Below, in pieces: positions 1 to 61,032 of a DNA stretch of 64,000 nucleotides. A model generated the notes under the pieces. The model worked only from the letters and a program-made list of their open reading frames with translations, did not search any database and was not told where the DNA came from. Position 1 is the stretch's first letter; each line of letters opens with the position of its first letter. A program made the translations under genes and the position numbers. This stretch comes from Eledone cirrhosa (taxonomy: Eukaryota), in the NCBI GenBank assembly GCA_964016885.1, contig OZ024741.1:159650001-159714000 (forward strand), given 5' to 3'.

Positions 1-510
1 TATATATGAAGACGGCGTATATATGTGTTGGTATGTATATTTAATCTTGATAATTTGTATAATTTTGTATAATTTTGTACATAGATCTGTTGAATATGCA
101 TACCAATTCTAACACATATATATCCTAGAAACGATCGTTAAATAATGAACTTTTTTTGTTTAATATAAGGAATTGTTTATTCATTATTTGTTTAATATTT
201 TATCTTGACTCTGTATACCGTTTATCTTTCACCGAAAGTGATTTTTCATTACATCTCTTCTTTCCATGATATCCGGAATACATTGAGTTCTTCATACGGA
301 TTGGACACTACCGTAAACTCTTGGTAGATTTATCTACATATATATATATATATATATATATATATATATATATATATATATATATATATATATATATATA
401 TATATATATATATATATATATAACGAAGGAAATGTGGTAAGGAACCAGGTGGACCATAACGCACCAAAGTACTCAATAGGGTAGTAGAGTGGGTAATAGG
501 AACCAGTAAG

Positions 511-604
511 ACCCCGACGGCTGAGCTCAAGCCGTTTCGACGGCTAATTTTGGACTAAATGAAAATTTATCCTGGTATTTAAATAGCCGAGCTTCTCAAG
601 AGGT
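511..604 (-). ncRNA. Type I hammerhead ribozyme, U3:A8 core variant (family A)
   Basis: Near-exact reverse complement of 1647-1740, differing only inside loop II. Confidence 0.7.
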
Positions 605-1646
605 AATTCCATATATGGTCAAAGTGATTGTCACAAGGATTGGTCACAAGTTAGTAGTAATTCTGTGATGGCAAATTAGTGGGGGAAGGGGTAGCTAAAC
701 CTGCCAGTAGGAGAAAAAAGGGGAGGGGGTGGAGTAGACCCATTCATGCGTTGGTGGTGCCGGCTACAGCTGGGCGTGAGGTCAAAGAAGATACTAGGGA
801 GGGGGAGGGGGAGGAAGTCGAAACGGTAAGTAGAACAATGAAGGGTAAAAATATACTGAGAGTGAAGCGAATAAATGTAAAGAAAAAAAAAATAAAATAA
901 GCAATTTCTACGACCTAAGTCTCTCGCTATTGCTAGGCTAAATAAATAAATAAATAAATAAATGAATAAATAGATAAAGAAATAAAAAAATAATAAATAA
1001 ATAAACTAGGTGGGACGGAATAGGAAAGGACCCTTTTAAGAGGTATAAGTACGTATATCATACAGTGACGGGTCAACAAAGGGGGGCCAAAATACTAAAG
1101 AAACTACCACGAAATAATTAATAAAGGTTTCTACCCAGGGCACAAGGCCAGCAACCACCCAGTGCAGAAAAGTAAACTAGTACGAAATAATAATTCAGAG
1201 TCCCGAAAAAATATACTAATGCTAACTCTAAGGGTACCGCCACGCTACAAAAGTTCTTATACAAGCTACATGAATTTATTTATTTATTTATTTATTTATT
1301 TATTTATTTCTTTAGCCTAGCAATAGCGAGAGACTTAGGTCGTAGAAATTGCTTATTTTATTTTTTTTTCTTTACATTTATTCGCTTCACTCTCAGTATA
1401 TTTTTACCCTTCATTGTTCTACTTACCGTTTCGACTTCCCCCCCCTCCCCCTCCCTAGTATCTTCTTTGACCTCACGCCCAGCTATAGCCGGCACCACCA
1501 ACGCATGAATGGGTCTACTCCACCCCCTCCCCTTTTTCTCCTACTGGCAGGTTTAGCTACCCCTTCCCCCACTAATTTGCCATCACAGAATTACTACTAA
1601 CTTGTGACCAATCCTTGTGACAATCACTTTGACCATATATGGAATT

Positions 1647-1740
1647 ACCTCTTGAGAAGCTCGGCTATTTAAATACCAAGATAAATTTTCATTTAGTCCA
1701 GAATTAGCCGTCGAAACGGCTTGAGCTCAGCCGTCGGGGT
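1647..1740 (+). ncRNA. Type I hammerhead ribozyme, U3:A8 core variant (family A)
   Basis: ACCTC-TTGAGAA-GctCGGCTA..loop..TAGCCGtC-GAA-ACGGC-tTGAGCTCA-GCCGT-C-GGGGT. Stem I is ACCTC/GGGGT, extendable by GGAA/TTCC. Stem III is ACGGC/GCCGT with a palindromic loop. Predicted GUC cleavage after 1735. Confidence 0.7.
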
Positions 1741-1813
1741 CTTACTGGTTCCTATATATATATATATATATATATATATATATATATATATATATATATA
1801 TATATATATATAT

Positions 1814-1938
1814 AACGAAGGAAATGTGGTAGGGAACCAGGCGGACCATAACGCACCAAAGTACTCAATACTTAGGGTAGTAGAGTGGGTAATAGGAACG
1901 AGTAGGAGCTCAGCCGTCGGGGTCCTACTCGTTCCTAT
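1814..1938 (-). mobile_element. Mini fold-back copy of family A
   Basis: Same tail as 422-500, plus a 16 bp inverted repeat ATAGGAACGAGTAGGA/TCCTACTCGTTCCTAT; flanked by (TA)n. Confidence 0.75.
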
Positions 1939-2142
1939 ATATATACATATATATATTTATTAATACAATAACAGAGATAGCTTAACACTAAACTCCGACT
2001 GGTAACCATCTCACTCAACAAACATTAGGTTATATGTTAGTATAACCCAATTTAAGTGTTTGGGGTGCTAACTATATGTATTTTGTGGAAAGCCAGTTGT
2101 ATTATTTTATGAGATATAATTAAAGTTAAAATATATCTCTCT

Positions 2143-58133: not shown

Positions 58134-58509
58134 GTAATAATAAAATTGAAGACTAAAATCCAAAGAGGGCTCGATAAGGAAAATATATATCAAATATATA
58201 AGAACCGTAGAGCAAATATTTATTAAAATAACAGATTAAAGTTTAAGCAAAGAATCGCTGCTTTCACCCTCAACGGGATCTTCTGAAACTAACAAAGTCA
58301 ATCTGTAAACGCAGAACTGGATATTTCAAAAAACGTTGCAACCGGAGGAAGACAGGAAGTATCGTCTTGCTGTCTTCCTCCGGTTGCAACGTTTTTTGAA
58401 ATATCCAGTTCTGCGTTCACAGATTGACTTTGTTAGTTTCAGAAGATCCCGTTGAGGGTGAAAGCAGCGATTCTTTGCTTAAACTTTAATCTGTTATTTT
58501 AATAAATAT
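58134..58509 (-). mobile_element. Fold-back element, family B (~144 bp arms, 58216-58359 and 58366-58509)
   Basis: Near-perfect inverted repeat; tail nearly identical to 47494-47586; TA flanks. Confidence 0.8.
58435..58485 (+). ncRNA. Type I hammerhead fold with U4A core (family B); mirror copy at 58240-58290 on the minus strand
   Basis: Same fold as 47659. Here stem I extends past a CTTTGTT bulge through ACAGATTGA/TTAATCTGT. Confidence 0.68.
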
Positions 58510-58601
58510 AAATATATATATATATATATATATATATAATATATAATATATATATATATATATATATATATATATATATATATATATATATATATATATA
58601 T

Positions 58602-60845
58602 ATATATTAGTAAACGGAATAGAAAATGCTGACAAATTGTTCACAGTTGAAAAATGGTTTAATTAGGAATAAAAGAGTATTAGTGATTGTATGGGTTAGT
58701 ATTCAGTTGTGGTTTTAAGTTTTTAAGTTTTTACCGGTTGCGCATTTCTAAATGCTTTTCAAAAATAATTTTGAGATAGAGTGTCCGTGTTGTTTGCTCT
58801 GATCTGATTAGTTTTGGGAATTGTACCTGTTTTTATGTTAAAAAAGTGGCTCCAGCGTTACTTTGGTGTTGCAAAATTTCTTGTGGTCAAAACAATTTTG
58901 ATTGGTCGGTAGAGGTCATGTGAATGTAAAAAATTGATTTTGCGCCAAGACTGTTTTTATGTACCCAGGACCTTAGACACCCTAAAGTAAATCAACCGAA
59001 ACTAAAAGCTCTTCCATACATCTCCACACACAACCCTCTCAACAATGAGGCCTTTGACACCATCCTCCAGAACATCCCTGTGTTGAAAAAGGATCATAGA
59101 ATGAACCAAATTCTCCGAACACACGATATCATAAAGAGCAAAAGACAATCCAAGTCAATGAAAAACATCCTAACACATGCCAAAGTACTGCCAACCACAA
59201 CAACGAAACCCACAGTAAAAAAATGTGATAGACCCAACTGTGGCATTTGCATCAACCTAATAGAGGGTTCGGAATTCTATTTCAAAGATGGACAACGTTT
59301 TATAGTAAAACACAATTTCACATGTGCATCAGAAAATCTAATATATGTATTAACTTGCTCAGGTTGTCGAGAACAATACATAGGCCAGACCAAAAACAGC
59401 CTCCGCCAACGCATGACTGTCCATAGATCCCAAATTAAAATACGGGAATACAGGAAAATACCACTGAGTGAACACATTGATACCTGTGCCGCCCAAAATC
59501 ATCCCAACTTCGGAATCTTTCCCCTCTACAAATTTAAAGATAATGCCACCCACACCCAGCGCAACAGCAAGGAATCTTACTTCATTAACAAATACGGACC
59601 CCGTCTAAACACTTCTCCCTAAGACGAACCCACAACATACACACGTTAACATACATACCTACATCAGCACACATCTCCACCCACATATAAACACAATGAC
59701 ATACGTAAACACACATGCTCTATGGTGCAACACAGAAAAATATATGTGTATATATATGTATATATATATATATATATATATATATATATATATATATATA
59801 TATATATATATATATATATATATATATATATATATATATATATATATATATATATATATATATAGTGAATATATGTATGTGTATATATATGTAGTGAATA
59901 TCATTTCACACCTTTTATTGTTAAGATTTTTGATGTTCTATTAAGAGAACCGATTTTACTGAAAAAATCGAATAATGTACACCATTTTACCAGGGGGAAA
60001 AAATACTGGTCCCCCCCCCACACACATATATACACACATACATACACACGCGTACATTAACATACAAAGAGACTTATACACACACACACACACGCACTTC
60101 TCCGTATAAGACAAAAGCTGAAACATATCTTTTGACTTGCTAAAATACCCCCATTGCTTTCAGACACATTCTTACTGACCATCCCTGCTACCACGAATTA
60201 CTCTGCTATACACCCCCCCCCCCACACACATCCCTGCTAACCATTATCACAACATCGAACACCTTACTACTACTACACACACACACACACACACACACAC
60301 ACACACACACATATTTGTTGTGAAAGAGTCATTTCTCAATCTTGGCGCAAAACCAATTTTTTATTCACATGACCTCTACCGACCAATCAAAATTGTTTTG
60401 ACCACAAGAATTTTTGCAAACACCAAATAGCGCTGGAGCCACTTTTTTAACATAAAAACAGTCTTGGCGCAAAATCAATTTTTTACATTCACAATGACCT
60501 CTACCGACCAATCAAAATTGTTTGACCACAAGAATTTTTGCAACACCAAAGTAACGCTGGAGCCACTTTTTTAACATAAAAACAGGTACAATTCCCAAAA
60601 CTAATCAGATCAGAGCAAACAACACGGACACTCTATCTCAAAATAATTTTTGAAAAGCATTTAGAAATGCGCAACCGGTAAAAACTTAAAAACTTAAAAC
60701 CACAACTGAATACTAACCCATACAATCACTAATACTCTTTTATTCCTAATTAAACCATTTTTCAACTGTGAACAATTTGTCAGCATTTTCTATTCCGTTT
60801 ACCAATATATAATAACTTGTGTGTTACACCTCTATTCTTTTAACT
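58602..60845 (+). mobile_element. 5'-truncated Penelope-like element with an inverted terminal repeat copy (58602-58962 vs 60450-60810)
   Basis: ~360 bp inverted arms bracket a GIY-YIG ORF fragment; ~120 bp tandem duplication at 60340-60585; short tail then (TA)n. Confidence 0.85.
58963..59622 (+). CDS. PLE C-terminal fragment: Cys-rich linker plus GIY-YIG endonuclease (no true start)
   Basis: [11 protein letters not shown]...[36 protein letters not shown]...[15 protein letters not shown]; the frame is open back to the inversion junction. Confidence 0.88.
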
Positions 60846-60865
60846 ATATATATATATATATATAT

Positions 60866-60916
60866 GGCTTCTACAGGACTAGAACTGTTTCATTCGAAGG
60901 AAATCATCAGGAAGCC
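60866..60916 (-). ncRNA. Canonical type I hammerhead ribozyme; mirror copy at 60917-60960 on the plus strand lacks the 5' arm of stem I
   Basis: Minus strand reads GGCTTC-CTGATGA-tTTC-cttc-GAAt-GAA-ACAG-ttctagtc-CTGT-A-GAAGCC; GUA site. Confidence 0.88.
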
Positions 60917-61032
60917 CTGATGATTTCCTTCGAATGAAACAGTTCTAGTCCTGTAGAACCCATTTCTATATTAAATATCTCTGCTATGCATTGAGTACCT
61001 TACTGTGGTTTCTCCCGATTGAACACGGGATA
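60866..61032 (+). mobile_element. Mini fold-back hammerhead element (~165 bp); related tail at 51044-51153
   Basis: ~42 bp inverted arms around AAGC, followed by the tail CTCTGCTATGCATTGAGTACCTTACTGTGGTTTCTCCCGA shared with 51091-51135. Confidence 0.72.

Follow-up and report, generated by a model that had tools for sequence, protein, structure and literature searches.

Hammerhead motifs in the window

The 64,000-nt stretch of the Eledone cirrhosa genome analysed here (contig OZ024741.1, positions 159,650,001 to 159,714,000, forward strand; hereafter the window) contains 13 type I hammerhead ribozyme motifs next to (TA)n tracts. They belong to eight repeat families, five of which we assign to Penelope-like elements (PLEs) and three of which are without a linked open reading frame (ORF). 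Most copies were probably made by reverse transcription from two fixed internal sites of an uncleaved transcript. An earlier note, made from the sequence alone, had listed these 13 positions and proposed about eight families.

We searched the window with a relaxed descriptor of the type I hammerhead (core YWGANRA with a 3:8 pair, GAAA, an NUH site, and stems I to III). Descriptors requiring uninterrupted stems miss most of the motifs, and ours was loosened stepwise until the 13 were caught. Since it was tuned on them, the independent test is the 1.3 Mb genome sample described below; shuffles were run at identical settings. All 13 positions were recovered, and clustering of the matches gave eight families (F1 to F8, Table 1), as had been claimed. 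At the final settings the window yielded 15 matches, namely the 13 (scores 27-50) and two weak ones at 19611 (score 20) and 56647 (score 22), against a mean of 0.44 and a maximum of 2 per window in local dinucleotide shuffles (n=50). A stricter setting returned 12 of the 13 together with 56647, compared to 0.23-0.25 in 3 x 150 shuffles, and gave no match in the reversed window sequence; 60866 was caught by another version of the descriptor. Once U3:A8 (F1, F3), U.U as the first stem II pair (F2, F6, F8) and A4 (F6) are admitted as variants, all 13 show the type I topology, with three stems around CUGANGA, GAAA and NUH and an open stem I. With Rfam, no hammerhead family appeared among the best 150 of 185 matches in the window, and five motif-rich loci gave no match at the gathering score. 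The hammerhead motifs are real and not due to chance.

The islands bearing the motifs had been described as unique, and most islands as PLE or retrozyme-like ends. They are in fact repeats, a first look giving each family tens to thousands of candidates. The proposed identity stands for the motifs (five PLE-linked families and two non-coding tandem ones), but "most islands" is too strong, given that 9 of the 44 TA-bounded islands of the window carry a full motif, and an end of one of the eight families is present in 12 of 44. A count of 17/44 was dropped in favour of these figures because its queries carried short interspersed nuclear element (SINE) sequence that matched.

Table 1. Hammerheads and associated elements in the window (RT stands for reverse transcriptase, pLTR for pseudo-long terminal repeat and UTR for untranslated region; positions relative to the cut site are signed).
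Feature	Position	Strand	Details
F1 head-to-head insertion, 3' end of putative Hydra-type PLE, between (TA)n	423..1755		left arm long (+97), right arm short (+20)
F1 hammerhead	511..604	-	core UUGAGAA (U3:A8), loop II long, stem III palindromic throughout, GUC site
F1 hammerhead	1647..1740	+	second arm of insertion 423..1755
F1 short head-to-head pair	1815..1938		without hammerhead 5' half; absent from the earlier note
F2 non-coding unit, ~990 nt, retrozyme-like	1960..2949	-	tandem in 2/20 relatives
F2 hammerhead	2143..2267	-	CUGAAGA, U.U first pair, 96-nt stem-loop II, palindrome ACAAUUGU, GUU site
F1 short head-to-head pair	38351..38496		half hammerhead; absent from the earlier note
F3 piece of 588-595 nt non-coding tandem unit, retrozyme-like	38592..38909		5' inversion
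F3 hammerhead	38667..38754	-	U3:A8 core UUGAUAA, palindrome ACUACGUAGU, GUC site
F4 minimal hammerhead	39134..39178	-	CUGAAGA plus one bulged base, stem III AGGACU, CUA site; putative pLTR of Neptune/Nematis-type PLE
F4 PLE ORF, 5'-truncated	39476..40726	-	RT YVDD, CX4CxxC linker, GIY-YIG
F5 3' UTR and pLTR, putative Hydra-type PLE	41515..42636	-	long end
F5 hammerhead	41647..41711	-	CUGAUGA, stem III AUAUGUAU, AUA site
F1 short head-to-head pair	47094..47303		both arms start at -40 in loop II; absent from the earlier note
F6 hammerhead	47604..47654	-	CAGAAGA core (A4), U.U first pair, CUU site; long-end arm of pair 47495-47733
F6 hammerhead	47659..47709	+	short-end arm of pair 47495-47733
F7 hammerhead	47778..47848	-	CUGACGA, long stem II, palindrome AUGCGCAU, AUA site; putative pLTR of Hydra-clade PLE, element ~47731-49658
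F7 ORF, C-terminal endonuclease fragment	49081..49458	-	
F5-subfamily hammerhead	50153..50213	-	stem III AUAUAUAU, AUA site, short end
F8-related fragment	51062..51146	+	starts at cut site; one of the 4/205 fragments doing so
F6 hammerhead	58240..58290	-	long-end arm of pair 58132-58509
F6 hammerhead	58435..58485	+	short-end arm of pair 58132-58509
F8 hammerhead	60866..60916	-	CUGAUGA, U.U first pair, 4-bp stem III, GUA site; short-end arm
F8 long-end arm	60916..61032	+	begins at core; without stem I 5' strand
Ninth hammerhead family	1..338	+	copy truncated within core; absent from the earlier note
Decayed hammerhead-like motif	46084..46172	+	CUGAUGA ... GAAA AAAUUG UA, stem III pair broken; read by eye

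Five families are linked to Penelope-like elements

Two motifs had been placed downstream of same-strand GIY-YIG endonuclease sequence, and both placements proved right. The motif at 39134 lies ~300 nt from a 416-aa frame with RT and GIY-YIG domains (Pfam PF01541, E 3.4e-5). That at 47778 lies 1.2 kb from a fragment which gives no Pfam match by itself and which is the C-terminus of an 808-aa PLE ORF found elsewhere. Linking the clusters to PLE ORFs succeeded for F1, F4, F5, F6 and F7. For F7 we found a full-length copy (in L111) composed of a hammerhead, an 808-aa RT-endonuclease ORF, a ~1 kb 3' UTR and a second hammerhead; pLTR hammerheads flank the ORF in L115 as well. In L233, the upstream F6 pLTR is followed by the start of the ORF. 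A same-strand endonuclease lies upstream in 5/25 F1 loci, 9/25 F6 loci and 7/30 F7 loci (one of the latter being the window). Shared sequence runs unbroken from a Hydra-type endonuclease to the motif in F1 and F6, and in F5 a frame ~1.35 kb upstream has the C-terminus TCDLC..EE..CRH. A single ORF with RT and C-terminal GIY-YIG is seen in F7 and F4, with partial ORFs in F1, F5 and F6, and the copies show the 5' truncation, inverted 5' copy and optional tail at one end that are traits of PLEs. On this sequence evidence, we assign the motifs of F1, F4, F5, F6 and F7 as pLTR hammerheads of PLEs.

Clades were judged by motif signatures. The Hydra clade is described by RWK, DKT, a CxCX5C linker, no CCHH, CxxC and CxH, and a (TA)n target (PMC8557442). 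The F7 protein has DKT, CxCX5C, CxxC and CxH, no CCHH, and RWI for RWK; the F6 protein has RWR, DKT, CxCX5C and CxH. We thus class F6 and F7 as putatively Hydra-type, together with F1 and F5, whose assignment comes from endonuclease fragments alone. Near-identical relatives of F4 have open frames of up to 1261 aa. In F4 the linker reads CIDKKCITC, and cysteines lie between the two halves, GIY and YIG, of the endonuclease. F4 is a candidate Neptune/Nematis-type family, judged by a CX2-5CxxC linker and CCHH in the endonuclease, signatures by which the two clades were not separated. A homologue search returned 37 proteins at 28-41% identity, of which one is named (Argonauta hians); at this distance they do not place the host.

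Two observations concern the surroundings of F7 copies. Four equal-score matches ~27-28 kb apart (G000:C4:352200553, 352228628, 352256285 and 352283266) suggest a large tandem duplication bearing an F7 copy. Adjoining the full-length F7 element, L111:8449-9444 holds a PIF1-like helicase frame (Helitron-like, by eye).

Families without an ORF

F2 and F3 have neither a long ORF (longest ATG frames of 43 and 48 aa, respectively) nor a tRNA. F2 units (990 nt) were tandem in 2/20 loci and F3 units (588-595 nt) in 8/20, two of them overlapping. They are likely non-LTR retrozymes, which PLE proteins would mobilise. Two further families of this kind were seen. A non-coding unit of 469 nt, repeated in tandem with a hammerhead in every copy, occurs in L173:274-7740 (17 copies in 10 kb, with inversions) and also in L150, L159, L181 and L188, with no full motif in the window. 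A 419-nt tandem hammerhead family lies at L116:7281-8582, shows compensatory changes in stem I, and has left a hammerhead-less fragment at 43073-43291 of the window.

For F8, no link to an ORF was found in 25 targeted loci and two longer copies. The Neptune-type element beside the F8 motif was considered as its driver and rejected, since it has two 3' ends of its own; we treat it as a separate element. This Neptune/Nematis-type PLE (58607-60845; GIY-YIG at 58930-59622) has a CX4CxxC linker and a 5' inversion, and its family recurs in L086. A scan of the final 1.2 kb of the element found no hammerhead core with stems, also when the core was searched loosely, and the element may be without a hammerhead or use another ribozyme.

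The ribozyme fold bears signs of selection

We collected homologues of F5 and F7 by core and flanks, leaving stem II unconstrained. Among these, 45/68 distinct stem II sequences fold at z < -2, core position 7 is variable (U 64, C 54, G 18 and A 10 of 146), and the stem III hexamer alternates between TGCGCA, TATATA and TATGTA. In an alignment of 38 sequences of the F5 group, 8 of the 11 stem II pairs are altered on both sides, as looked for when testing covariation across copies. Stem II cells are paired in 91.6% of cases versus 85.5% in shuffles (0/500), with slid controls at 36-56%, while two measures, which count pairs or their types, did not exceed the shuffles (233/500 and 498/500). Stems I and III of this alignment are partly fixed by sequence selection. 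Elsewhere, F8 swaps stem I as GGCTTC/GAAGCC and AGATTC/GAATCT, and the short stem III is self-complementary in 23 of 28 clusters, although the outer pair alone was required. The ribozyme is thus, to judge by these patterns, clearly under selection in the source elements. Among the 13, the palindromic stem III that the earlier note named as a trait of PLE hammerheads is present in seven (F1 twice, F2, F3, F5 twice, F7) and absent from F4 (AGGACU), F6 and F8; the last two have stems of 4-5 bp with non-palindromic loops.

Folding energy is unremarkable (z <= -2 in 3/10 motifs). F1, F2, F3, F8 and one F6 copy have a hammerhead fold no more than ~2 kcal/mol from the minimum, the F6 monomer being borderline overall; in monomers of F4, F5 and F7 this fold is 4-10 kcal/mol above the minimum. 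The U3:A8 and U.U variants are reported natural ones (PMC3088659), and the literature passages compared mention U4C and not U4A. The invariant U4 of the uridine turn is present in nine of the 13 motifs and replaced in the four F6 ones: among the copies listed, 57/65 have the core CAGAAGA and none has CUGA. F6 is young and ORF-linked despite its A4; either the variant is natural and active, or the family spreads although its ribozyme is weak.

Copies have two 3' ends and rarely start at the cut site

We gathered 205 fragments of the eight families that reach past the cut site, from the genome sample, the window and its two flanks. Every family except F2, which has one, shows two fixed 3' ends before (TA)n. 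Counted from the cut, the short and long ends are at +20/+97 (F1), +80/+239 (F3), +46/+168 (F4), +57/+136 (F5), +29/+115 (F6), +53/+135 (F7) and +27/+85 (F8); in F6 and F7 the long end extends into the 5' UTR of the ORF. Among 51 head-to-head pairs, 45 could be classed, and 42 of these combine a short with a long end, three are long/long and none is short/short (binomial p 9e-10 against 0.5). Short palindromes are found at many of the junctions.

Only 4/205 fragments start at the cut site (-2..+4), and 155/205 span it. The 5' ends instead pile up further upstream: 36/57 F1 ends at -47..-29, with peaks at about -44 and -40, inside loop II; 18/26 F8 ends at -48..-34, near -44; and, in targeted loci, 18/47 F7 ends at -126..-119, about -123. 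The words TCATTT/TTAGTC, TCAGCT, TCATAT and TTAGTT stand at the pile-ups of F1, F8 and F7 and at the weak one of F6 at -45. Since the F1 pile-up lies inside loop II, 39/48 sampled F1 fragments span the cut without the CUGA half, and 1/48 extends to the start of the motif. The 5' half of the core is missing from most F1 and many F6 and F8 copies. We considered whether the F7 pile-up marks the start of the upstream pLTR and rejected this, as the copies in L111 and L115 extend further and the pile-up is therefore an internal point. End fragments are far commoner than pieces of ORFs (for F7, 19 ends versus one stretch with the ORF). In four runs of unrecorded kind, kept as contigs, depth was much higher over the pLTR than over the start of the ORF, a profile that gives neither a copy number nor information on expression, ends or cleavage and was not used.

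A high estimated hammerhead load in the genome

The genome sample consisted of 130 systematically spaced 10-kb stretches (1.3 Mb) from chromosome-scale contigs. At a score cut of >= 23, set after the scores were seen, it held 126 motifs against 3.6 in shuffles (n=8), and the reversed sample gave 7 matches at any score. The motif frequency is thus far above that of dinucleotide shuffles in the sample as in the window. Motifs are unevenly spread, with 75/130 stretches having none and one having 17, and their density is 97 per Mb (bootstrap 67-132). Together, the motifs of sample and window form 36 clusters, 19 of which have at least two members. From this we estimate ~2.8 x 10^5 motifs (2-4 x 10^5) per 3.0 Gb genome, or 2.2 x 10^5 when one tandem family (26 matches) is excluded. 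At ~200 per Mb the window has twice the genome average, and it is not a special cluster. A (TA)4 lies within 250 nt 3' of 79/95 sampled motifs versus a background of 25%.

The proposal that the motifs are a large and probably unannotated component of this genome is borne out by their number and by their escape from Rfam. As an RNA-catalytic component they are putative, and many copies are half-ribozymes. Published hammerhead counts, obtained by other methods, include 126,247 in axolotl, > 6,000 in Acropora and, by Rfam, 235 in giant squid. The load estimated here appears to exceed the published counts compared, though those came from other, stricter searches. In the literature on hammerhead or self-cleaving ribozymes in cephalopods or octopus we found no octopod census of these motifs, and the main text of a paper on O. 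vulgaris repeats (PMC13282606) contains neither "ribozyme" nor "hammerhead".

A proposed origin by twin priming on uncleaved transcripts

We propose, with a probability of about 0.7, that five PLE families and three ORF-less families are present and that most copies arose by twin-primed reverse transcription at two fixed internal sites of an uncleaved transcript, off whose 5' end it ran, with insertion in (TA)n. Transcription would start within the upstream pLTR of a partial tandem, at initiator-like TCA/TTA motifs, as the 5' pile-ups 30-125 nt upstream of the cut suggest. The GIY-YIG endonuclease of the PLE protein would nick both strands of a TA tract, and reverse transcription would be primed at two internal sites 20-240 nt past the ribozyme, corresponding to the two 3' ends. 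On the 5' copy, both cDNAs would reach the end of the RNA after ~60-260 nt and be joined head to head, leaving short, asymmetric, ORF-less islands with uncut hammerheads. A precedent exists in vitro: the protein of an anole PLE acts on both strands, cutting and extending each, its two internal RT starts match the genomic tail, hammerhead cleavage is dispensable for insertion, and the hammerhead cuts only with the protein (PMC11167929).

As the ribozyme appears to be selected in source elements, it likely acts on another RNA pool. It would most likely trim tandem or read-through transcripts slowly, helped by protein or by a second copy, and in F2 and F3 it would free monomers that circularise. 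Dispersed single copies would be mostly inert by-products. If F1 transcripts begin inside loop II, nothing but the downstream copy would be able to cut the 5' one. As the arms of a head-to-head pair lie on opposite strands, one transcript through both would be a hairpin and not a ribozyme dimer.

Several observations weigh against this scheme. Three of the 45 pairs are long/long. F6 has scattered 5' ends (7/49 at -45..-42, with further ones around -95 and -123), a single distinct 5' wall is not seen in F4 or F5, and no ORF was linked to F8 in the loci and copies searched. Ends defined by BLAST may reflect the divergence of subfamilies from the single reference used per family, F8 and F5 most of all. 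The initiator consensus that the pile-up words resemble is that of Drosophila, and TCA and TTA words are common in AT-rich DNA.

The spanning of the cut site is also what a circular template would give. If the ribozyme cuts and the RNA is ligated to circles, rolling reverse transcription of these could yield all copies, PLE ends included, and re-ligation would restore the cut. Such a model has been proposed (PMC4209133) and retrozyme circles have been reported (PMC7229834); it would suit the tandem arrays of F3, F2 and the 469- and 419-nt families, as well as the conserved core with a free position 7, which implies selection for catalysis. Neither the fixed 5' walls upstream of the cut nor the short/long asymmetry is predicted by it. 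Circular templates are probably right for F2 and F3, as our proposal grants, and as the source of all copies we consider them unlikely. Antisense self-priming, proposed for rotifer Penelope (PMC3846280), or fold-back of the second strand, for which the junction palindromes speak, could also make head-to-head pairs, with 5' walls reflecting structures or promoters on the other strand. Yet sense RNA suffices as template for the anole protein to extend both strands (PMC11167929), and fold-back alone leaves unexplained that 42/45 pairs end at two different fixed points shared with other copies, which makes this route more improbable still than circles.

Two further explanations concern the motifs themselves. 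A catalytic layer used by the host, with dispersed motifs cutting host transcripts, could be suspected from the very high motif density, from the near-minimal folds of F1, F2, F3, F8 and one F6 copy, and from viruses in which self-cleavage can drive cap-independent translation (PMC13725137). The copies are nevertheless young and near-identical (40 at 100% identity for F7), as expected of mobile elements, many of those of F1, F6 and F8 are missing half of the core, and in monomers of F4, F5 and F7 the hammerhead fold lies well above the minimum; host use is thus very improbable. Chance matches in AT-rich repeat DNA might be feared from a relaxed descriptor tuned on the 13, weak folding z in 7/10 motifs and the silence of Rfam. 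Against 13 motifs versus 0.2-0.4 in shuffled windows, 126 versus 3.6 in the independent sample, stem II covariation that was not imposed by selection of the sequences, and self-complementary stems III in most clusters, the probability of chance is negligible.

Reverse transcription from two internal sites can be extended to a bolder statement, which we put forward tentatively and hold, as a whole, somewhat doubtful. This would be the heaviest ribozyme load yet described, with 2-4 x 10^5 hammerheads of at least 19 families and as many half-copies, all being twin-primed run-off cDNAs of transcripts that start at the 5' edge of the ribozyme (F6, F8) or in loop II (F1). F6 would be an active natural U4A variant, and the pairs would amount to the order of 10^5 potential RNA hairpins.

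Other repeats in the window

A degenerate GGTGTTGGT-type satellite with higher-order repeats occupies ~15 kb (3600-18500) and is preceded by an inverted CAC-rich stretch. It is probably non-coding, and each of its strands carries long open frames (Pro/Thr-rich, the longest of 5082 codons). At 19481-24705 lies an apparently intact two-ORF long interspersed nuclear element (LINE) of L1/Tx1 type, encoding 587 aa (weak zinc-knuckle match) and 1163 aa (apurinic/apyrimidinic endonuclease, RT and zf-RVT); a LINE 3' fragment is found on the minus strand at ~52390-52870. An abundant SINE-like repeat, which we take to resemble octopus SINEs, occurs at 26960-27140, 27630-27850, 43310-43780 and 51600-51770, with some copies in inverted pairs.

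Comparison with known systems

Hammerhead-bearing PLE ends are known as a class (Cervera 2014, Craig 2021). Minimal hammerheads in the pLTRs of metazoan PLEs were described by Cervera & de la Pena 2014 (PMC4209133), and ours share with them the type I topology, short palindromic stem III, long stem II and presence of many families per genome, the mostly single and truncated copies with opposite-strand pairs 100-700 bp apart, and variants such as the U3:A8 core and a bulged base before stem II (here in F4). Ours differ in number, with 2-4 x 10^5 estimated here and, with a different descriptor, ~2,000 + 1,300 in Schistosoma, 4,000 in coelacanth and 9,000 in Xenopus there, and in having loops II of up to ~100 nt, a fixed A4 in F6, and stable non-palindromic stems III in F6 and F8.

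The Hydra clade of PLEs with a C-terminal endonuclease was described by Craig et al. 2021 (PMC8557442), who list Hydra-1_Obim from Octopus bimaculoides. The elements found here resemble that clade in RW(K), DKT, the CxCX5C linker, the lack of CCHH, and CxxC and CxH around conserved E and N, as well as in canonical hammerheads, (TA)n targeting and a tail on one end of inverted insertions. The clade is described as a small number of families of < 3 kb, whereas this genome has at least four young families of very high abundance, and the F7 unit measures ~3.7 kb with a 3' UTR of ~1 kb.

With Poseidon PAc of Anolis (Frangieh et al. 2024, PMC11167929) our families share two RT starts giving an optional tail, extension of both strands, AT-rich targets and, as the copies suggest here, uncleaved RNA as the insertion template. 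The PAc start sites lie inside the ORF and its tails measure 30-40 nt, while here the tail lies in the 5' UTR (F6, F7) and tails measure ~60-160 nt. The run-off origin of solo pLTRs and the count of pair asymmetry come, in our case, from genomic copies.

Animal non-LTR retrozymes (Cervera & de la Pena 2020, PMC7229834; Li et al. 2026, 10.64898/2026.07.22.740005) resemble F2 and F3 in being non-coding and in tandem, with a single type I hammerhead per unit and GC < 45%, and are proposed to be derived from and mobilised by PLEs. F2 (990 nt) and F3 (~590 nt) exceed their usual length of 150-450 nt, F3 has a U3:A8 core, and both are known here from genomic DNA.

Meaning of the finding

The motifs alone would be ordinary, their class being known. 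A first point of value is that ~95 motifs per Mb are invisible to Rfam. Their copy number makes the role of the hammerhead in PLEs, and the origin of one-tailed inverted pLTRs, a countable question. The copies point to insertion from uncut RNA with two RT starts, in agreement with one in vitro study, and allow the sites where transcription starts to be predicted exactly. A ready test set would be provided by the young families whose ORFs are intact, by the variant cores (U3:A8, A4), and by stems III of both dimer and monomer type.

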